From an uncultured Candidatus Saccharibacteria bacterium (lineage in GTDB: Bacteria; Patescibacteriota; Minisyncoccia; UBA6257; UBA11618): DNA of 64,000 nt. Under the pieces are notes generated by a model that saw only the letters and a program-made list of their open reading frames with translations, did no database searches and was not told the origin of the DNA. The stretch lies in NCBI GenBank assembly GCA_964362125.1, contig CAYICS010000001.1, forward strand, positions 18,052-82,051. Reading direction: 5' to 3'. Positions 1,341 to 63,431 of this stretch are shown piece after piece. Numbering within the stretch: position 1 is the stretch's first letter; each line of letters opens with the position of its first letter. The position numbers and the translations under genes are program-made.

Positions 1341-3278
1341 TTGAAATCTAGCAAATTAAACCCGAAACAGCAAGAAGCGGTCAGCCACGGCTCTGGGCCG
1401 CTTTTGATTGCCGCCGGCGCCGGCTCAGGCAAGACCCAGACCCTCACCAACCGCCTCCAATACCTGATTAATACCCTCAAAATACCACCGGGAAATATTC
1501 TCGCCATTACTTTCACCAATAAAGCCGCTGATGAGATGAGAAAAAGGGTTCACATTGGTCAATTGTCAAATACTAAAGGTCAAATGTCATTTATAGGGAC
1601 TTTTCATTCTTTTGGAGCGAAAGTTCTCCGGGAAAACTGTCATCATTTCAACCGCACGCCCCGGTTCACCATCTTTGATGAAGACGACTCGCTGACGCTC
1701 TGCCGGCAAGTCTGCCGGAATCTTAATCTGGATAAGGAGAAATATAACCCCATCGATCTGGCGGGGCAGATTACTGAATTTAAAAATGAGTTGATCCGGC
1801 CTGACCCGACCACAGTCGAAGGCAAAGTCTTCTACGATTATGAAGCTAGTTTGGAAGAAAATAACGGCTTTGATTTTGATGACCTGATTGAAAAGCCGAT
1901 TAAACTATTGCGGGAGAAAGCCGGGATTTTAAAAAAATATCAGGAGCAGTATCAATATATTTTGATTGATGAATATCAGGATGTGAACGCGGCCCAGTAT
2001 CAGTTGGTGAAATTGCTGGCGGGAGAGCGAGCCAACCTCAGTGTTGTCGGCGATGATCAGCAGGCCATTTACGGCTGGAGAGGCGCCGACTTCCGCAACT
2101 TTCTTAACTTTGACAAAGACTGGCCAGCGGCCAAGGTGGTCCTGCTGGAAGAAAACTACCGCTCCACTCCCAATATTCTCCGGGCAGCCAACGAAATCAT
2201 AAAAAACAATAAATTTCAGCGACCGAAGCGCCTCTGGACGCAAAAACCAGAAGGGGAGCCGATCGTCCTTTTCGCTGCTCAAGAAGAACACGAAGAGGCC
2301 GATTGGCTAGCCGGAAAAATCCGTCAACTTTGGCAAAACCAAGGCCATGCGCTGGAAGGCATCGCCCTTATTTACCGCACCAATGCTCAATCGCGGGCCC
2401 TGGAACAGGCTCTGATTGCTGAAGAAGTCCCCTATCGTATTTTCGGCGGCATCAGATTTTACGAACGCAAAGAAATTAAAGATATCCTCGCCGGCCTGCG
2501 CCTGGCCCAAAACCCCAAAGACCAATTAAGTATCGAGCGGCTAGTCAAAAATTTCCCTCAAAGCAAAACCAAATTGCTGGTGGAACAATTGCCGCGGCTG
2601 GCTCAGGAACTAACCCTGATCCAGTTAATCAACTACTTTCTCAACCACACCGACTATTTTCAATATCTGGAACGCCGCTTCCGCAACTCTGAAGAACGAG
2701 AAGAAAACGTCAAAGAGTTAATCAATTTTGCCGCCAGCTTTGTCGACCGGGGCTTAACCGCTTTCTTGGAGCAGGTAAGTTTGGCTCAGGCCCAAGATGC
2801 TCCGGCCGGGGAGCGGGGAGTGAACTTGATGACCATTCACCTGGCTAAGGGGCTGGAATTTGATACGGTTTTTATCGCCGGCTGCAACGAAGGCACCCTG
2901 CCTCACCATCGCTCTTATAACACCGAAGAAGAATTGGAAGAAGAGCGGCGGCTGATGTATGTGGCCGTCACCCGGGCCAGCCAGCGGCTCTTTCTCTCTT
3001 TTAATAAAATCCCCTCTCGCTTTCTCTATGAAATCCCGCCGGAGCTGGTTCTCTTCATCAACCAAAATGGCCGGGCGCCGGCTCGCGGCCGCGAAGGCTG
3101 GTCAGCCGGCCGAAGCCCTGGCGAAGGTTGGTCAGCCAGCCGAAGCAGTGACGGGGGCTGGCCTGCCAGCCGAAGCGATGACGGGGGCTGGCCTGCCAGC
3201 CGAAGCGATGACGGGGGCTGGCCTGCCAGCCGAAGCCTTGGCGAAGGCTGGGAGGAAGAACTGTGGATTGATTATTAA
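1341..3278 (+). CDS. uvrD: ATP-dependent DNA helicase UvrD/PcrA with a repetitive C-terminal extension
   Basis: TTG start; Walker A GAGSGKTQTLTNR, UvrD motifs (DEYQD, GDDQQAIYGWRGA, YRS, VAVTRA). The C-terminal ~60 aa is built from 30-nt tandem repeats. Confidence 0.85.
   Translation: MKSSKLNPKQQEAVSHGSGPLLIAAGAGSGKTQTLTNRLQYLINTLKIPPGNILAITFTNKAADEMRKRVHIGQLSNTKGQMSFIGTFHSFGAKVLRENCHHFNRTPRFTIFDEDDSLTLCRQVCRNLNLDKEKYNPIDLAGQITEFKNELIRPDPTTVEGKVFYDYEASLEENNGFDFDDLIEKPIKLLREKAGILKKYQEQYQYILIDEYQDVNAAQYQLVKLLAGERANLSVVGDDQQAIYGWRGADFRNFLNFDKDWPAAKVVLLEENYRSTPNILRAANEIIKNNKFQRPKRLWTQKPEGEPIVLFAAQEEHEEADWLAGKIRQLWQNQGHALEGIALIYRTNAQSRALEQALIAEEVPYRIFGGIRFYERKEIKDILAGLRLAQNPKDQLSIERLVKNFPQSKTKLLVEQLPRLAQELTLIQLINYFLNHTDYFQYLERRFRNSEEREENVKELINFAASFVDRGLTAFLEQVSLAQAQDAPAGERGVNLMTIHLAKGLEFDTVFIAGCNEGTLPHHRSYNTEEELEEERRLMYVAVTRASQRLFLSFNKIPSRFLYEIPPELVLFINQNGRAPARGREGWSAGRSPGEGWSASRSSDGGWPASRSDDGGWPASRSDDGGWPASRSLGEGWEEELWIDY
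3091..3250 (+). repeat. About 5 tandem copies of a 30-bp repeat (ggctggcctgccagccgaagcgatgacggg-like) encoding GGWPASRSDD units at the UvrD C-terminus
   Basis: Direct reading: three perfect copies and two degenerate ones. Confidence 0.8.
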
Positions 3279-37974: not shown

Positions 37975-38187
37975 ATGCCCGCAAAAATAACAACCACTAA
38001 TTTTGTTGAGGCCAAGAGGGCTGTAAATAAAATTAAACAACTATTGCCTAAACTTACAGAGTCAGAAAAGTTGACCCTGGAGTTGCTTCTAGACCAAGAA
38101 GCAATGGATAACTTAGAAAAAAGCCTGAAAGATGCTAAAGCGGGAAGGATTATATCTTTAGATGAGGCCAAGAGGCAGCTGCTTTAA
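37975..38187 (+). CDS. putative antitoxin (70 aa) of a type II TA pair
   Basis: Small helical protein immediately upstream of, and coupled to (ATG overlaps the stop), the RelE/ParE-like ORF. Confidence 0.45.
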   Translation: MPAKITTTNFVEAKRAVNKIKQLLPKLTESEKLTLELLLDQEAMDNLEKSLKDAKAGRIISLDEAKRQLL

Positions 38188-56581: not shown

Positions 56582-57499
56582 ATGCCTAAGTATGTTTTTC
56601 TTCATTTATTACTGATGGCCGCGCTTTATACCAGCGTCTTTGGCTTTATTTCGCTTTTATTCGGCTTGATTGATTATGCCATTCCCGATCCATTAGTTCA
56701 TTTTTATCAGGGTATCCCCGGGGGCTTCCATTGGGCCTTGGCGTCGCTGTTAATAGTTTTTCCAGTTTATCTGTTGGTTAGTTGGTTGCTGCAGTGGGAG
56801 TTTCGACGTCAGTCCCAATGGCAGCAGGGTCTGTTTCGGCGCTGGCTGATTTATTTCACTTTGTTTCTAGCGGCGTTGGTGATTATCGGCGACCTGATTG
56901 TTCTAATTTCCAACCTTTTGGAAGGGGATTTAACCAGCCGGTTTGTGCTCAAGGCGCTGGTAGTTTTGGCAGTGGCAGCGGTGGTTTTTGTCTATTATAT
57001 TTTTGACCTGCGCCGGCGGGAGACGGCTTTCAGCGCCGGGGTTAAAACTTTTCATTGGCTGGTAATAGCGGCGGCGGTGGTTTCAGTGGCAGGCGGGTTT
57101 CTGGTAGCCGGCTCTCCATTGCAGCAGCGGGCAATGCGCTTTGACGAGCGGCGAGTGAGCGATTTGCAAAACATCCAGTGGCAGATTGTTAATTATTGGC
57201 AGAGGAAAGGGGGATTACCGGCGGCTTTGGAGGACTTGCGTGACGAAATATCCGGCTTTGTGCCGCCAGCCGATCCTCGCAGCGCCGAGGCTTATGAATA
57301 CAAAATTCTTGGAGATTTATCTTTTGAATTTTGCGCGGTCTTTGAAACCGAAGCGATGGGCGGGACGATAAGCGGCGCGGCCAAGCCGTTTCCAGTCAGC
57401 CAGTCTGACGTTTGGAGTCATGGCCGAGGCCGGGTTTGTTTCCAGCGGACTTTGGATCCGGAATTATACCCGCGTGCGCCGAAAAGAGAAAAATTTTAA
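56582..57499 (+). CDS. hypothetical polytopic membrane protein (305 aa)
   Basis: 6-7 TM helices in the first 190 aa, soluble C-terminal domain. Confidence 0.4.
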   Translation: MPKYVFLHLLLMAALYTSVFGFISLLFGLIDYAIPDPLVHFYQGIPGGFHWALASLLIVFPVYLLVSWLLQWEFRRQSQWQQGLFRRWLIYFTLFLAALVIIGDLIVLISNLLEGDLTSRFVLKALVVLAVAAVVFVYYIFDLRRRETAFSAGVKTFHWLVIAAAVVSVAGGFLVAGSPLQQRAMRFDERRVSDLQNIQWQIVNYWQRKGGLPAALEDLRDEISGFVPPADPRSAEAYEYKILGDLSFEFCAVFETEAMGGTISGAAKPFPVSQSDVWSHGRGRVCFQRTLDPELYPRAPKREKF

Positions 57500-57508
57500 T
57501 AAGCGAAG

Positions 57509-57829
57509 TGGTGGAAGTGGGGAGTTTGACCTCCCGTCCGAAACTTTTCCGCCAGATAGTTCTACAAGCTTAGTCCTTCGATAAACTCGGGACAAATTTT
57601 GCCGCTCAACTTCTGTTTTCAGCCACGGCCCTCTGAAAACATAGCTTGATTTATAACACCGCTGAATCGCCTATCAAGCTTCAGCGAGCGATGCCGCTTT
57701 AGGCAAAAGCCAAAGCGGGAGTTCGATTAAATGCGTTGGCAAATAATCTTTTTGCAACGGATTTAGGAGACGTTGCCGCTCCGCTTGCCTATCTGGTTTC
57801 AATGTTCCGTCGAAGCCTTTGCCACTCCC
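57509..57829 (-). ncRNA. ssrA: tmRNA (ssrA)
   Basis: Minus strand: 5' GGGAGUGGCAAAGGCUUCGACGG (canonical GGGG.UGA..GGNUUCGACGG), 3' GGACGGGAGGUCAAACUCCCCACUUCCACCA (T-arm plus acceptor plus encoded CCA; G3:U70 pair). Internal tag frame GCCAACGCAUUUAAUCGAACUCCCGCUUUGGCUUUUGCCUAA gives ANAFNRTPALAFA*. Confidence 0.85.
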
Positions 57830-58232
57830 TTTGTTTGATGGCGGCGCGCTTGTCCTGTTTCTTTCTGCCCCGCCCCAAGCCCAATTCAATTTTGATCAGG
57901 CGGTTCTTATTATACACCCGCAAGGGGAGCAGAGTCAAGCCGGCGCGCTGGATTTTTCCGATCAATTCTTTAATCTCGGATTTTTTCAAAAGCAGGCGGC
58001 GCGATCTCTTGGGGTCATAGTCAGCTGGAGTATTGGCTGGCTGATAAGGCGGGATATCGGCGTTGATCAGCCAAAGCTGATTGTCTTTGACCGCGGCAAA
58101 AGATCCGGCCAGATTGATCCGGCCGGTTTTAACGGCTTTAACCTCAAATCCTTTTAGTTCAATCCCCGCTTCGTAGGTTTCCAGAATCTGATAGTCAAAG
58201 CGTGCCCGTCGGTTTTCAGCGATGACTTTCAT
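57789..58232 (-). CDS. smpB: SsrA-binding protein SmpB
   Basis: Conserved SmpB core (ENRRARFDYQILETYEAGIELKGFEVKA...) and basic C-terminal tail. The last 41 nt overlap the tmRNA 5' end. Confidence 0.85.
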   Translation of the reverse strand: MKVIAENRRARFDYQILETYEAGIELKGFEVKAVKTGRINLAGSFAAVKDNQLWLINADIPPYQPANTPADYDPKRSRRLLLKKSEIKELIGKIQRAGLTLLPLRVYNKNRLIKIELGLGRGRKKQDKRAAIKQREWQRLRRNIETR

Positions 58233-58256: not shown

Positions 58257-58988
58257 ATGCGTTTATCGCCATCCACACTCAATCTTTTCTTGGAGTGCCC
58301 CAAGTGTTTTTATATGGAGTTGAAAATGGGCATTCACCGGCCCCAGGGGCCGTTTCCGTCTTTGCCCGGCGGCATGGATGGTTTGATTAAAAAATATTTT
58401 GATAAATATCGGCTCTTGGGTCAAATGCCGCCGGAAATTGAAGGCCGAGTGGAGGGAGCCCAGCTTTTTCCCGATGTGGAGGTTTTGAATCAATGGCGCA
58501 ACTGGCGCACCGGTTTGTCTTATCAAGATAAAGAAACAGGAGCTACTTTAAGCGGCGCCTTGGATGATTGTTTGGTGCAGGATAAAAAGTATATGCCGAT
58601 GGATTATAAAACCCGCGGCTATGATGTAAAAGAAGGCGGGGAGAGATTTTATCAAAATCAGATGGACAGCTATGATCTGCTCCTGCAAAAAAACGGCTTT
58701 AAGACCGCGGGTTGGGCGTGGTTGATATATTGGATTCCAAAAGAAATTCAAAACTCAAAAGGCAAAACTCAAAACTACAACTCAAAGATTAAAAATACGG
58801 CCAGTCTTTTTGAAGAAAATAATAGCAATAGCGCTTGGGTAAGGTTTGTGATTGATCCCAAGAAAATGAAAACCGATGCTGATTCGGCTCTAAAGGTTTT
58901 TCGCGATGCGGTGAAGTTATTGGAGGGGCCGATGCCCAAAGCTCATTCGGTTTGTACATTTTGCTCTTGGGCCAGCGCGCCCAGCTAG
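58257..58988 (+). CDS. PD-(D/E)XK nuclease superfamily protein, Cas4-like with 4 Cys (stand-alone; no CRISPR array nearby)
   Basis: N-terminus SPSTLNLFLECPKCFY; catalytic D...D / MDYKT (D/E-x-K) motifs; C-terminal CTFC. Contains an in-frame (CAAAACT) heptamer array at 58749-58787. Confidence 0.5.
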   Translation: MRLSPSTLNLFLECPKCFYMELKMGIHRPQGPFPSLPGGMDGLIKKYFDKYRLLGQMPPEIEGRVEGAQLFPDVEVLNQWRNWRTGLSYQDKETGATLSGALDDCLVQDKKYMPMDYKTRGYDVKEGGERFYQNQMDSYDLLLQKNGFKTAGWAWLIYWIPKEIQNSKGKTQNYNSKIKNTASLFEENNSNSAWVRFVIDPKKMKTDADSALKVFRDAVKLLEGPMPKAHSVCTFCSWASAPS

Positions 58989-59075
58989 CAAGTTATTGAT
59001 ATAGGTAAGCCGGTATGCTATCCTATTTAAAGTTCTGTATTTCAAGCGTTGCGGCGAATATGAGATGAAATTTAT

Positions 59076-59090
59076 TTGACACGTTGTCAA
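59076..59090. promoter_or_regulatory. perfect palindrome TTGACAcgtTGTCAA (candidate operator overlapping a -35-like TTGACA) upstream of the 59127 gene
   Basis: Direct reading; followed by the RBS AAGGAG at 59113. Confidence 0.4.
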
Positions 59091-59126
59091 TAAATTTAAG
59101 TCCGGCGCCGCAAAAGGAGTTTGGCC

Positions 59127-59756
59127 ATGAGTACAGTTTCTGTGGATCAGCGGTTCGCTTTACTGGCTGCCATTGGCGCCAACGCCCACTGGGACGATCT
59201 TTCAAGAGATGGGGTCCAGTTGGGCATCAAAGAAGCGCAACGGGCAGGAGAGGAATTCACCAGGTTTGTGAAGAATGGTTTTCGGATGCAAATAGTAGGT
59301 GATTTCTTCACCCGAACAGAAGATTTTACCATCTCAATCCCAGCCCTTACCCGCCCCACCCTCGAGGAGATTCGGGCAAGATATGATTGGGTCAGAAAGA
59401 TCACAAGAGACCTGTCGCCAACCGAGGCAATAATGATGGAGTTGGGGACTCTTCTTCGTCCCAACGAAGAAGAGATTAACAGAAAGGAATATCGCCCCCG
59501 TCATATCCCCTTCACTTATTTGGGGCTTCAGCAGGGAATGTGGCTTATTGAGCATCAGGATGACCAAGAATTAGCTCCTGTCAAGGCTCTTTGCGGCAAG
59601 GTTTCTATTGACCTTCTTGGTATAGAAGTGCTTAGCTCAAAAGGCTTTAGTTTCTTCCCGTGCCTCGATGGTAATAGCGGGCCGTGGGAGTTGATTTGGA
59701 GTTATGCTGAGGTTGGTCTGTCCCGCAATATTCGCGTTGCCCGTCCTTGCCAGTAG
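59127..59756 (+). CDS. hypothetical protein (about 210 aa); codon usage appears AGA/AGG-rich relative to neighbouring genes
   Basis: RBS plus ATG, own palindromic operator and terminator; no recognised domain. Confidence 0.4.
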   Translation: MSTVSVDQRFALLAAIGANAHWDDLSRDGVQLGIKEAQRAGEEFTRFVKNGFRMQIVGDFFTRTEDFTISIPALTRPTLEEIRARYDWVRKITRDLSPTEAIMMELGTLLRPNEEEINRKEYRPRHIPFTYLGLQQGMWLIEHQDDQELAPVKALCGKVSIDLLGIEVLSSKGFSFFPCLDGNSGPWELIWSYAEVGLSRNIRVARPCQ

Positions 59757-59774
59757 CTCCTCCTCACGCTCTTT

Positions 59775-59818
59775 CGCCCTCGTCTCCGATCCAGTCGGAG
59801 GCGGGGGCCTATTTTTTA
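59775..59818 (+). terminator. rho-independent terminator (gccctcgtctccga ... tcggaggcgggggc then T6)
   Basis: Stem with one mismatch followed by TATTTTTT. Confidence 0.5.
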
Positions 59819-59837
59819 GTTTGCGCCAGCGGCTGTT

Positions 59838-60173
59838 TTGGGGTATTATTTTTTTATGACAACAGCCATCAAAACTCCGGAACTGGAGGCGGCGATTAAG
59901 AAAATAGTGGAAGAATATCAGCCGGAGAAGATTATTTTATTCGGCTCTCGGGTGCGGGGCGAGGATCGGCCGGACAGCGATTATGATTTTATTATCGTGA
60001 AAGATACCAAGACGCGTTGGATTCAGCGGGCTTTTGAGTTGCCGGATGTGCCGATTCATGCCGATTTTTTCATTTACACGCCAGAGGAATTTGAGCGGAT
60101 GAAGGAAGGAAGTATTTTTATGTTGAACGCTTTAAAAAATTATGTAGTTTTGTACGACAAAAATAAAAAATGA
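59838..60173 (+). CDS. minimal nucleotidyltransferase (MNT, NTP_transf_2)
   Basis: GSxxxG...DxD motif: LFGSRVRGEDRPDSDYDFIIV; overlaps the HEPN gene by 4 nt. Confidence 0.75.
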   Translation: MGYYFFMTTAIKTPELEAAIKKIVEEYQPEKIILFGSRVRGEDRPDSDYDFIIVKDTKTRWIQRAFELPDVPIHADFFIYTPEEFERMKEGSIFMLNALKNYVVLYDKNKK

Positions 60174-60589
60174 TTAACTATAGAGAAATAGCTCATCGTT
60201 GGTTATATCAAGCCCTTTTTGACCTTAATAACGCTAAGAAACTTTTCCCTGAAGGTAATTTTTCCTACACTTGTTTTTTCTCTGAACAATCGGCCCAAAA
60301 AGCTCTTAAGGGGTACTTGATTTTTAATAGAAATATAGATATTAATATTCACGCAATCAGTAAACTTCTGATGAGAGCCAGCCAGCTTGACGGGTCATTT
60401 AAAAATTTTATTGATGAAGGAAAAGGATTAGATAAGCATTATTTAAGCACTCGTTATCCTGATGCGCTTCCTGATCCTTTGGTACCATTTGAGGCTTATA
60501 CTAAAGAAGAAGCGCAGACAGCTATTGCTAGCGCGCAGAAGATTTTTGATCTCTGCCAAAAATTAACCGGCTATGCTAAAGATAAATAA
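60170..60589 (+). CDS. HEPN domain protein (partner of the upstream MNT; HepT/MntA-type module)
   Basis: pfam05168-like pattern CFFSEQSAQKALKGYL...NIHAISKLL and the conserved RY motif (LSTRYPD). Confidence 0.65.
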   Translation: MINYREIAHRWLYQALFDLNNAKKLFPEGNFSYTCFFSEQSAQKALKGYLIFNRNIDINIHAISKLLMRASQLDGSFKNFIDEGKGLDKHYLSTRYPDALPDPLVPFEAYTKEEAQTAIASAQKIFDLCQKLTGYAKDK

Positions 60590-63431
60590 AGATTTTAACC
60601 TGCCCAAAGTTGAGGAAGAGGTTTTAAGTTTTTGGAGAAAAAATAGGGTGTTTGAAAAATCGCTTGCCCTTCGACAGGCTCAGGGCAAAAAACACTACGT
60701 GTTTTTTGAAGGCCCGCCCACGGCCAATGCCAAGCCGGGGATTCATCATGTTCTGGCAAGGGTTTTCAAGGATATAATTCTTCGCTATAAAACGATGAGC
60801 GGTTTTTTTGTGGCGCGCCGCGCCGGCTGGGACACCCATGGCTTGCCGGTGGAAATTGAGATTGAAAAGAAACTGGGTTTTAAAAACAAACAGGATATTG
60901 AAAAATACGGCATTACCAAGTTCAATAAACTGGCGCGAGAGTCGGTCTGGCAATATAAAAAAGATTGGGAGGATTTAACCGAGCGCATCGGCTTTTGGCT
61001 GGATTTGGAACACCCTTATATCACTTACGAAAATCAATACATCGAAAAGCTCTGGGGGATTTTTAAAGAGATTGATAAGCGGGGATTGCTTTATAAAAGC
61101 CATAAGGTGGTGCCGTGGTGCAGCCGTTGCGGCACGGCTTTGTCTTCGCATGAATTGGCGCAAGGGTATGAAGAAACAAAAGACCTGGCGGTCTTTGTTA
61201 AATTTCCAATATCCAATTCCCAATTTCCAAAAACTTATATTTTTTCTTGGACGACGACGCCCTGGACTTTGCCGGGGAATGTGGCCTTGGCCATAAATCC
61301 GAAGCATAAATTTGTGAAGGTTCCTGATCCAGAGGAAAAGGGAAGTTGGTTAATTTTGGAAAAAGAAAGCGTCCACCGTCTCTGGCCCAAAATCGCTTCT
61401 TCGCAAGAAGCGATTATTGGGGTAAAAGAGTTGCTGGGATTAGAGTACGAGCCGTTGTTCAAAATCCCCGCCCTTCAATCCCCCACTTCTTATAAAATTT
61501 ATCCGGCGGATTTTGTGACAGCCGATGAAGGCACGGGCGTGGTCCATACAGCCGTGATGTATGGAGAAGATGACTATGAGTTGGGCAAAAAAGTCGGCTT
61601 GCCGCAATTTCATACTGTTGATGAGCAGGGCCGGTTCATTAAAGAGGTACCGGTTGTCGGGGGAATGTATGTGAAGGCGCCGGAGACGGAAAAGAAAATT
61701 ATTGAACACCTTAAAGCCCAGAGCTTATTGCTTAAGGTCGAACCATACACTCACGATTACCCTTTCTGTTGGCGCTGCGGCACACCCGTGCTTTATTATG
61801 CTCGCGATTCCTGGTTTATCGCGATGAGCAAATTACGCAAGGAGTTGCAGGCGGCCAATAAAAAAATCAACTGGATTCCCGGACATTTGCGCGAGGGTCG
61901 ATTTGGTGAATGGTTGAAAGAAGTGAAAGACTGGGCGATCTCGCGAGAACGATATTGGGCGACCCCGCTGCCAATTTGGATTTGTGTAAAATGTGACAAT
62001 AAAGTTGTAATAAGTAGTAGTAAAGAGATTGAGGAACGCGGCGGCAAGCCGCCCAAAGATTTACACCGTCCGTATATTGATGATGTTGTTTTGAAATGCC
62101 CGGAATGCGGCGGAGAAATGCGGCGGGTAAAAGAAGTGATGGATGTTTGGTTTGATTCGGGAGCAATGCCTTTTGCCAGCGGCGAATATCCGGAAAGATA
62201 TCCAGCTGATTATATTTGTGAAGCTATCGATCAAACCCGCGGCTGGTTTTATACGCTTTTGGCCGTCGGCGTTTTAATGAAAAAAGGGACGCCTTATAAA
62301 AATGTTATTTCTCTTGGGCATGTGCTTGATAAGCAGGGCCGGAAGATGTCTAAGTCGTTGGGCAACACCGTTGATCCTTGGCAGATGATTAATAAATACG
62401 GCATTGATGTTGTCCGTTGGTATTTCTACACCATCAACCCACCGGGGGAGCCAAAAAGATTTGATGAAGGAGATCTAAATTTGGTTTATAGAAGATTTCA
62501 TTCTTTGGTTTACAATTCTTATCTATTTTGGGCGTCTTATAGTATCGATGCTAATCTACGAATGAATGCGAATGATACGAATAGCAATGCGAATGTTTTA
62601 GATCGCTGGATTCTAGCGCGGCTTAACGAGACGACGGCCAAAGTTACAGAGCGGCTTGATGATTATGACATTGGTACAGCGGCTAAGGCGATTGAGCTGC
62701 TGGTAGATGATTTATCCCATTGGTATATTCGCCGCTCGCGGAGGCGACCGGAAGCATTGCCAGTGTTGGGCTATGTTTTACTGGAAATCAGCAAGCTGAT
62801 CGCTCCCTTTACGCCGTTTTTTGCCGAAGCATTATTTCAGTCTCTAAACCCTAAACCCTACACCCTAAACCCTTCTATTCACTTGACCGATTGGCCCAAG
62901 GCCGACAAAAAGCTGATTGATAAAAAACTGCTTGGTCAAATGGCCCAAATCCGGCAGTGGACCAGCCAGGCGTTAGCGGCGCGAGCAGAAGCCGGCATTA
63001 AGGTTCGTCAGCCGCTAGCTAAATTAAAAATTTCCGCCCGAGGCGGATCCCATGCCTACCGGCAGGCAGGCGTCTCTGGCGGAAAAAATGAAAAATTAAA
63101 AATTAATGAGGAGTTATTGAATATCTTAAAAGACGAAGTAAATGTAAAAGAAATTGTTTTTGACAATAAGATCAAAAATGAGATTGAGCTGGATATAAAA
63201 ATCACTCCCGAACTCCGTCAAGAGGGAATTTATCGAGAGCTGGTGCGGCTGATTCAGGATTTCCGCAAAGAGAAAAAACTAAAGCCGCAGGATAAGATTA
63301 AACTGCGCGCTGAATTGCCGGAAGATATGTTAGAAGTGGCGCAAAAGAATGATGAGCAACTACGAAAAGAAGTTAATGCTATTAAAATAGATTATAAGAA
63401 GGCTGGTAAGGTTGACTTAGAGTTGACTTAG
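60573..63431 (+). CDS. ileS: isoleucyl-tRNA synthetase
   Basis: HIGH-type motif PPTANAKPGIHH; KMSKS; CP1 editing domain; C-terminal zinc-binding region. Contains an in-frame CCCTAAA run at 62844-62872. Confidence 0.9.
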   Translation: MLKINKDFNLPKVEEEVLSFWRKNRVFEKSLALRQAQGKKHYVFFEGPPTANAKPGIHHVLARVFKDIILRYKTMSGFFVARRAGWDTHGLPVEIEIEKKLGFKNKQDIEKYGITKFNKLARESVWQYKKDWEDLTERIGFWLDLEHPYITYENQYIEKLWGIFKEIDKRGLLYKSHKVVPWCSRCGTALSSHELAQGYEETKDLAVFVKFPISNSQFPKTYIFSWTTTPWTLPGNVALAINPKHKFVKVPDPEEKGSWLILEKESVHRLWPKIASSQEAIIGVKELLGLEYEPLFKIPALQSPTSYKIYPADFVTADEGTGVVHTAVMYGEDDYELGKKVGLPQFHTVDEQGRFIKEVPVVGGMYVKAPETEKKIIEHLKAQSLLLKVEPYTHDYPFCWRCGTPVLYYARDSWFIAMSKLRKELQAANKKINWIPGHLREGRFGEWLKEVKDWAISRERYWATPLPIWICVKCDNKVVISSSKEIEERGGKPPKDLHRPYIDDVVLKCPECGGEMRRVKEVMDVWFDSGAMPFASGEYPERYPADYICEAIDQTRGWFYTLLAVGVLMKKGTPYKNVISLGHVLDKQGRKMSKSLGNTVDPWQMINKYGIDVVRWYFYTINPPGEPKRFDEGDLNLVYRRFHSLVYNSYLFWASYSIDANLRMNANDTNSNANVLDRWILARLNETTAKVTERLDDYDIGTAAKAIELLVDDLSHWYIRRSRRRPEALPVLGYVLLEISKLIAPFTPFFAEALFQSLNPKPYTLNPSIHLTDWPKADKKLIDKKLLGQMAQIRQWTSQALAARAEAGIKVRQPLAKLKISARGGSHAYRQAGVSGGKNEKLKINEELLNILKDEVNVKEIVFDNKIKNEIELDIKITPELRQEGIYRELVRLIQDFRKEKKLKPQDKIKLRAELPEDMLEVAQKNDEQLRKEVNAIKIDYKKAGKVDLELT

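Follow-up and report, generated by a model that had tools for sequence, protein, structure and literature searches.

The 64-kb window examined here (64,000 nucleotides of contig CAYICS010000001.1, from an uncultured Candidatus Saccharibacteria bacterium) carries four plus-strand open reading frames (ORFs) between smpB and ileS, which encode a PD-(D/E)XK nuclease, a 209-residue protein earlier called unknown, an MNT nucleotidyltransferase, and a HEPN protein (Table 1). A preliminary description of this DNA placed these four genes, the palindrome TTGACAcgtTGTCAA, and a terminator hairpin where we also find them in the ORF list and the sequence, and it suggested that the genes could form one compact anti-phage islet next to ssrA. 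Our analysis points to a different arrangement, in which two separate insertions have entered a conserved gene row: a cassette with a probable orphan member of a protein family targeted by diversity-generating retroelements (DGRs), preceded by a leader RNA, and a Class II MNT/HEPN pair, both lying downstream of a nuclease that is a core gene. We estimate the probability of this account as a whole at about three in four. The main interest of the locus is the stand-alone member of the DGR-target family, hereafter the variable protein, together with its conserved leader RNA, which is not represented in Rfam.

Table 1. Features of the locus and blocks aligned with the nearest relative, L042. Positions are those of the 64-kb window.
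Feature	Position	Strand	Basis or remark
ssrA (tmRNA)	57509–57829	−	Rfam RF00023, 125 bits, E 1.9e-48, full-length model
smpB	57789–58232	−	Pfam SmpB, 6.3e-51; divergent from nuclease gene
PD-(D/E)XK nuclease gene	58257–58988	+	Pfam PDDEXK_1 (PF12705), 2.5e-9
Insert A, variable-protein cassette (promoter, leader, coding sequence, terminator)	58976–59816	+	blastn against L042
Promoter-like TTGATA-17-TATCCT, TG before −10	58996–59024	+	consensus scan; putative function
Structured 5′ leader	59048–59120	+	P1, GAU:GUC mini-helix, P2; architecture common to 22 unique loci
P1	59048–59055 with 59107–59114	+	leader fold
GAU:GUC mini-helix	59064–59066 with 59100–59102	+	leader fold
Hairpin P2	59069–59096	+	leader fold
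Palindrome TTGACAcgtTGTCAA	59076–59090	+	tip of hairpin P2
Shine-Dalgarno AGGAG	59115–59119	+	abuts P1
Variable-protein gene, 209 aa	59127–59756	+	no Pfam match
Variable-repeat-equivalent segment (last 44 codons and stop)	59622–59756	+	alignment with variable and template repeats of L013, L015–L017
GC-rich hairpin (15 pairs, 10 G-C; 59776–59808) and T-run	59776–59818	+	putative intrinsic terminator
Ancestral ileS upstream spacer, now preceding MNT	59817–59855	+	36 nt at 97% against L042
Insert B, MNT-HEPN	about 59856–60572	+	blastn against L042
MNT nucleotidyltransferase gene	59856–60173	+	Pfam Polbeta/NTP_transf_2, 7.6e-11 / 6.3e-10
HEPN gene	60170–60589	+	Pfam PF05168, 5.7e-26
ileS	60573–63431	+	ORF list
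Block shared with L042 1–1030	57933–58975		blastn, 80.6% identity
Block shared with L042 1035–1070	59817–59852		blastn, 97.2% identity
Block shared with L042 1093–2443	60587–61931		blastn, 75.4% identity

The division into two inserts follows from comparison with the nearest relative, L042 (recovered loci are referred to by L numbers), whose nuclease and IleS proteins are 86% and 79% identical to those of the window. In L042, the nuclease stop codon is followed by a 41-nt spacer and then by the ileS ATG, and because this uninterrupted arrangement matches the window in three blocks, the intervening segments of the window are resolved as two inserts, A and B. The nuclease is also followed directly by ileS in L044, L045, and L039. 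Three of the four genes are absent from all four of these relatives while the nuclease is conserved in position, such that the accessory nature proposed for the block holds for the variable-protein, MNT, and HEPN genes only. Nor do these three form one compact islet, as the two insertions are split by the conserved ancestral spacer. The MNT ATG occupies the position that the ileS ATG has in L042, and the HEPN gene overlaps the present start of ileS by 17 nt. We propose that the ancestral order was smpB (minus strand), PD-(D/E)XK nuclease, short spacer, and ileS, and that two independent insertions broke it up, with insert B dropping exactly between the ileS upstream spacer and ileS. Because of this exact placement, MNT, HEPN, and ileS probably form one transcription unit now. 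The spacer itself is 97% identical to that of L042 while the flanking coding DNA is 75–81% identical (window 59817–59858 versus L042 1035–1081), and it may be a conserved ileS promoter or leader, with TTGCGC-17-TATTAT ending about 8 nt before the ATG.

The variable protein has no match in Pfam, NCBIfam, PADLOC, or PHROGs. A word-indexed search recovers five homologs at 41–54% identity, and a profile search of 1.84 billion representatives extends the family to 380 representatives, with a conserved core at residues about 57–207 and N-termini that are variable or swapped among members. Pfam searches with 78 family members give no meaningful match (two weak PhiKZ_gp91 matches were judged to be noise), the family profile retrieves nothing from the PDB sequences, and no relatives of the variable protein were found among viral contigs. 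With 78 sequences, AlphaFold2 yields a model with a pLDDT of 94.8 and a pTM of 0.80, compared to a poor model (pLDDT 56) with 6 sequences. In the better model, the protein is predicted to consist of an N-terminal three-helix domain (residues about 1–50) and a C-type-lectin-like domain (residues about 60–209), and Foldseek finds no significant match for it in the PDB or BFVD.

The link of this family to DGRs comes from the gene neighborhoods of the homologs. In L013, L015, L016, L017, L019, L020, L021, L028, and L033, the homolog is followed by bAvd on the minus strand and by a reverse transcriptase (RT) of about 330 aa on the plus strand, while in L031, bAvd lies beside the homolog and the contig then ends. 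The bAvd-linked loci comprise four of the five genome loci (Saccharibacteria, Minisyncoccia, and Paceibacterota) and six further metagenome loci, and Pfam confirms RVT_1 (6e-26) and bAvd (1e-15) in the family-linked modules. In the four loci that were aligned, the last 131–136 nt of the gene, the variable repeat (VR), are repeated about 440–510 nt downstream as a template repeat (TR), and the mismatches between the two fall at template adenines in 20/23, 16/18, 15/18, and 21/23 cases (L013, L015, L016, and L017, respectively). As VR/TR mismatches at TR adenines are the defining signature of DGRs, the family is one of DGR targets, and sequence homology places the variable protein within it, as a family of the candidate phyla radiation (CPR). 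The family (about 380 clusters, no Pfam entry) has no annotation elsewhere, and its identity as a DGR target is newly assigned here, which replaces the suggestion that the unknown gene is a new defence component, for which PADLOC has no matching model. In the homologs, the last ~44 codons are rewritten from the TR by adenine-specific mutagenic retrohoming with bAvd and RT.

DGRs are common in the CPR (DGR clade 2), and DGR targets remote from the retroelement exist (PMC8144416, PMC5758913). The homolog loci resemble this set (clade 2, architecture B3) in showing the order target, TR, avd on the opposite strand, and RT, and the window host is likewise a CPR bacterium (PMC5758913, PMC8144416). 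This affiliation, probably with Paceibacterota, is indicated by genes near the block (DUF5671 and PolX) and by the named homologs of the nuclease. That targets can occur as orphans is seen in the synteny of L016 and L030, which share the order PolX, variable protein, NUDIX, and L20: L016 has TR-avd-RT after the target, whereas L030 keeps the target and lacks only the RT module (L016 4998–7457 versus L030 3998–5289), a natural gain or loss of TR-bAvd-RT beside a retained target. When the orphans L001, L010, L023, and L030 are compared with heterologous TRs, their differences are still biased towards adenines (p 1e-5 to 2e-9). In L015 (7708–8160), L026 (6708–7160), and L028 (5439–5810), the RT is followed downstream by a second target, a paralog that has the lectin domain but neither the leader motif nor an N-terminal helical domain; the L015 paralog shares about 81% DNA identity with the first target over 530 nt. 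In L009 (1–855), the region directly upstream of the homolog encodes the C-terminal portion of a large serine recombinase (Zn_ribbon_recom, Recombinase), which hints that some family copies ride on integrative elements.

When compared to the lectin-fold DGR proteins Bordetella phage BPP-1 Mtd, Treponema denticola TvpA, and Thermus aquaticus TaqVP, the window copy is alike in having its VR-equivalent segment at the extreme C-terminus, followed by a GC-rich hairpin. It differs from them in having no nearby TR, Avd, or RT and no clear adenine signature, and in showing no sequence similarity to solved structures or Pfam families. It is also small (209 aa), with a three-helix N-terminal domain and no FGE-sulfatase or DUF1566 match, and its gene is preceded by a structured leader that we did not find in Rfam or in the literature searched. 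The VR-equivalent segment keeps the scaffold residues G, FP, L, W, L, W, L, and RVA. The product would be a cytoplasmic or cell-associated ligand-binding protein, in which the N-terminal helical domain would couple the variable protein to a partner.

Upstream of the gene, a leader of about 95 nt ends right at the Shine-Dalgarno sequence, and the putative promoter before it matches the TTGACA...TGnTAnnnT promoter that is conserved upstream of homologs in an alignment of the upstream regions. The same order of elements is present in 22/22 unique loci: P1 5′ strand (GCUGCGGY), A-rich linker, GAY, NA, P2, YAA, RUC, P1 3′ strand, AAGGAG, and AUG. Single-sequence minimum free energy (MFE) folds, read from dot-brackets, give the same architecture in about 19/22 loci, and each sequence forms 7–8 of the 8 P1 pairs. 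At the position of the window palindrome, the other loci have CGCA-loop-UGCG, such that the sequence differs and the pairing is kept. RNAalifold on the raw MAFFT alignment recovers P1 only, as indels misalign P2, and a structural alignment was hence made by hand. Across its 20 distinct sequences, 92.1% of cells are paired and 9/19 pairs have double changes, values that none of 500 shuffles reaches, while slid partners pair at 25–40%. Two alignment columns (27 and 64; window 59066 and 59100) correlate perfectly between two states, with GAU and GUC together in 12 sequences and GAC and AUC together in 8, and this U·G to C·A exchange could reflect isosteric wobble covariation or simply two clades.

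A regular expression for the motif matches each locus once, in front of the homolog in every case, and the window once; its single viral match, in L046, falls within a phage ORF that is unrelated and has no neighboring homolog, and was judged to be due to chance. Rfam 15 gives no relevant match to the window leader or to four homologous loci even at E values up to 10, and a search of the literature on DGRs together with riboswitches found no description of such a leader. Two other identities were considered for the leader and rejected: a tRNA-like T-arm, whose stems do not pair, and an integron attC-like site, as there is one copy per locus, abutting the Shine-Dalgarno sequence.

In 15/21 loci, a YRCCGYAGCR segment ("anti-P1") is able to pair with the P1 5′ strand in place of the P1 3′ strand (at least 9 of 10 bases), and it lies about 30–47 nt upstream of the P1 5′ strand in 13 loci and 63–77 nt upstream in L013 and L017. 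The resulting mutually exclusive helices beside the ribosome-binding site suggest a switch, by which the leader RNA would set the translation or stability of the variable protein. Anti-P1 is absent in the window (58950–59045) and degenerate in L014 and L025, and precisely these three copies are the deeply diverged ones that have no DGR. Because the alternative upstream pairing is lacking, the window leader may be constitutive. Like translational riboswitches and attenuators, the leader has conserved junction nucleotides (GAUGAAA, UUCAAGUC) and covarying stems, its P1 3′ strand abuts the Shine-Dalgarno sequence, and most homologs have the alternative pairing for the P1 5′ strand; unlike them, it matches no Rfam family, and the window version is without that pairing. 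We raise only tentatively the possibility that the leader is an undescribed riboswitch-like or protein-binding RNA class for the DGR variable-protein genes of the CPR, with the decay of anti-P1 linking the switch to DGR activity. If true, expression of a hypervariable binding protein would respond to a specific signal.

The nuclease is a lineage-wide core gene, unrelated to either insert. Its PDDEXK_1 domain and four cysteines are present as earlier described (Cys14, Cys17, Cys233, and Cys236 in CxxC...CxxC arrangement, plus Cys105 and a D116-Y-K118 motif), and the protein matches phrog_31195 in PHROGs (1.3e-46); no PDB sequence matches it. More than 1000 full-length homologs exist, of which the best 120 are listed at 49–86% identity, under source names that include Paceibacterota, Harrisonbacteria, and Niyogibacteria, and some sources label them "Cas4". 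The gene is divergent beside smpB and upstream of (argS and) ileS in L036–L038, L040–L041, and L044–L045, and it directly precedes ileS in L039 and L042–L043, contigs on which smpB is absent or not identified. Besides the window, six of the recovered contexts have the gene both next to smpB and upstream of ileS. In every recovered context, it therefore lies beside smpB and/or directly upstream of ileS, the same position as in the window, which removes it from any islet. Like the Cas4/AddB-type Fe-S nucleases, it combines PDDEXK_1 and D...DYK with four cysteines across both termini, whereas its scores against the PADLOC Cas4 models are marginal (E 1e-4 or worse), no cas genes are found in the seven recovered nuclease contexts, and its synteny with smpB and ileS is conserved. 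As a conserved syntenic partner of these two genes, it more likely has a housekeeping role in DNA repair or recombination. In a relative at 63% identity, smpB and the nuclease gene are separated by an inserted HicB-like antitoxin gene (L044 1310–1573, L045 1204–1467), so that a further junction of this conserved row has also received a small addiction-type gene.

HEPN/MNT modules have been divided into Class I (HepT/MntA), defined by PF01934 or PF08780 with PF01909, and Class II, defined by PF05168 with PF01909 (Yao et al. 2020, PMC7641770); the same authors state that the RNase motif is missing from Class II, for which biochemical work, including validation as a toxin-antitoxin, is lacking (PMC7641770). 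By its adjacent PF01909-type MNT and PF05168 HEPN sequences, the window pair is assigned to Class II. The two genes overlap by 4 nt (ATGA), and the MNT has the GSX10DXD motif as GSRVRGEDRPDSDYD (residues 30–44). In this respect the pair corresponds to the overlapping, toxin-antitoxin-like module of the right superfamily that had been anticipated, and only its HepT/MntA class was misjudged: the HEPN protein has neither the RX4HXY motif nor a DUF86 (PF01934) domain, showing instead R54-x6-H61 and ...YxxxRYPD, and the MNT scores 29.8 bits against the NCBIfam MntA_antitoxin model, below its cut-off of 60. PADLOC has no match for the HEPN protein, and its closest solved structures are TT1696 (3.9e-14), 1WOL, TM0613, and the sacsin HEPN domain. 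The pair resembles Class II modules (TT1696, TM0613, and ST 1WOL) in its upstream MNT, 4-nt overlap, GSX10DXD motif, and PF05168 HEPN, and differs from them in being wedged between the ileS control region and ileS. By analogy, the MNT would nucleotidylate and restrain the HEPN protein.

Elements that target ssrA usually insert at its 3′ end. At this locus, the gene block lies on the 5′ side of smpB, and the ssrA 3′ end (57509) is on the far side, facing away. With this geometry, the argument for an ssrA-adjacent integration site fails, and integration at ssrA was rejected. Pfam and the neighborhood annotation identify no integrase in the block, and the boundaries of the insertion instead lie at 58976 and 59816. 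The divergent Arg-codon usage attributed to the unknown gene is not borne out either: its Arg codons (AGA 5, CGG 4, CGC 4, CGT 3, AGG 1, and CGA 1) are unremarkable, and its GC content (0.499) and third-position GC content (GC3, 0.512; z +0.2) are ordinary against 58 window ORFs. The compositional outlier is the HEPN gene, with the lowest GC3 among these ORFs (0.295, z −3.2), while the overlapping MNT gene is normal (0.505); the two halves may have different histories. As for ssrA itself, ARAGORN reports no tmRNA gene in the window, and Rfam recovered one, the 5′ end of which overlaps the smpB ORF by 41 nt (57789–57829), while a DUF5671 membrane-protein gene (56582–57499) ends 10 nt from its 3′ end (57509).

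The window gene is a member of the DGR family by homology and not a demonstrated target, and several points weigh against our account of it. Several scaffold positions that do not vary among the DGR-linked homologs have other residues here (R to P, W to Y, and G to I). Compared to heterologous TRs, the copy is mismatched at 59–71% of adenines versus 44–57% of other positions (p 0.02–0.13), an adenine bias that is only a weak trend, as it also is in L014 and L025, and the cognate TR that marks a DGR target is not found in the window. No direct evidence thus links this particular copy to a DGR. All copies from Hainich groundwater well H51, on at least eight contigs, are identical, and no protein variants appear in 15 billion public sequences, a weak test, as assemblies collapse diversity. 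The leader is subject to similar reservations: the alignment was hand-built, N-padded, and fitted to the MFE fold of each sequence, and so leans towards structure; the window sequence supplies most of the double changes in P2; and the window MFE reproduces the fold but is only modestly better than shuffles (z −1.88). There is no TR in the 64 kb (the best non-self match is 58 nt at 74%, 38086–38138, E 0.12), and tblastn with two family-linked RTs and one Avd finds neither in the window nor in the additional 4 kb that L003 covers past the window end, which brings the search span to 59 kb upstream and about 8.7 kb downstream of the gene. Because this span contains no TR, Avd, or RT and there is no clear adenine signature, we favor, with some reserve, the reading that the copy is an orphan whose binding surface is frozen. 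The alternative is that a DGR elsewhere in the genome still rewrites 59622–59753, using the downstream GC-rich hairpin as a retrohoming signal. Non-phage DGR targets more than 100 kb from their RT are documented (PMC5758913), metagenome surveys cannot see such targets (PMC8144416), and the window is 64 kb of a genome estimated at about 1 Mb; the gene also has an intact ORF, retains most VR scaffold residues, and is followed 19 nt after its stop codon by the hairpin. GC-rich inverted repeats follow DGR VRs (PMC5758913), and hairpins occur at the same place in homologs of the variable-protein gene; the window hairpin is both terminator-like and at the site of such a repeat, and an initiation of mutagenic homing element is definable only with a TR. 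Continued rewriting by a remote DGR is nonetheless unlikely in our judgment, given the empty search span, the lack of VR variants among the contigs from the same well, the non-significant adenine bias, and a leader missing the anti-P1 element of most DGR-linked loci. In three independent assemblies of the same population (Logan contigs L005, L007, and L008), the contig breaks exactly 49 nt after the stop codon, inside this hairpin; local heterogeneity may be the cause, or else an artefact of assembly at an inverted repeat.

Two further readings concern the palindrome and the relation among the genes. The palindrome had been described as a DNA operator, which would bind a dimeric repressor, with TTGACA doubling as a −35 box, and the perfect 6-3-6 dyad, 37 nt before the start codon, does contain a consensus −35 hexamer. 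As a class, perfect 6-3-6 inverted repeats are common, as the composition of the window alone accounts for 33 of them (the chance expectation for this exact pattern is 0.15 occurrences), and the palindrome gains significance only because a hairpin is conserved at the same place in 21 other loci. Those loci have a different sequence with the same pairing, inside longer stems of a larger, compensated fold; in addition, TTGACA has no −10 element at a workable distance downstream, and a conserved promoter already lies upstream at 58996–59024. An operator is accordingly improbable, and we read the palindrome as the apex of the covarying hairpin P2 in the leader RNA. The remaining possibility is that the variable protein and the MNT/HEPN pair, perhaps with the nuclease, act together as an anti-phage or abortive-infection module, with a lectin-fold sensor and a HEPN effector. 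The window has a single MNT/HEPN pair in 64 kb, such that its adjacency is not trivially expected, and in an unrelated locus, L001, the homolog is again followed immediately by an MNT gene and a HEPN-superfamily gene (Class I HepT/DUF86). In that segment (L001 1688–3150), the MNT gene (2556–2843) is miscalled on the opposite strand in the source annotation, HepT spans 2830–3150, and there is no RT. For other bacteria, it has also been proposed that lectin domains diversified by DGRs sense antigens for conflict systems (PMC10907252). Against a joint module, however, the variable-protein cassette and the MNT/HEPN pair are separate insertions, split by a terminator and a 97%-conserved ancestral spacer; the HEPN genes of the window and L001 belong to different families; tblastn finds no relative of either the MNT or the HEPN protein in the other loci (about 14 distinct ones with usable downstream sequence); PADLOC is without a match for the variable protein or HEPN; the nuclease is a core gene; and toxin-antitoxin genes (YafQ, PIN/RHH) are dense just beyond the window. 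We consider such a module very improbable, and the compact anti-phage islet with a new component, as initially envisaged, is left mostly without support by the two inserts, the core nuclease, and the DGR-family protein. Beyond trpS, about 2.5–3.8 kb past the 3′ end of the window, L003 (14417–15660) encodes a YafQ toxin, DUF6364, PIN, and RHH; the neighborhood past trpS collects toxin-antitoxin-like modules.

Our analysis replaces a speculative defence islet with a concrete, testable picture, in which the empty-site comparison places the insertion points with a precision of a few bases. The same comparison shows that a Class II MNT/HEPN pair is able to enter precisely at the boundary that separates an essential tRNA-synthetase gene from its control region. 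As this locus shows, DGR targets of ultra-small groundwater bacteria can persist without the mutagenic machinery, which raises the question of what role a once-hypervariable binding protein has after freezing. Finally, the conserved, covarying leader RNA, absent from Rfam, is a new candidate regulatory RNA upstream of the genes of this family.

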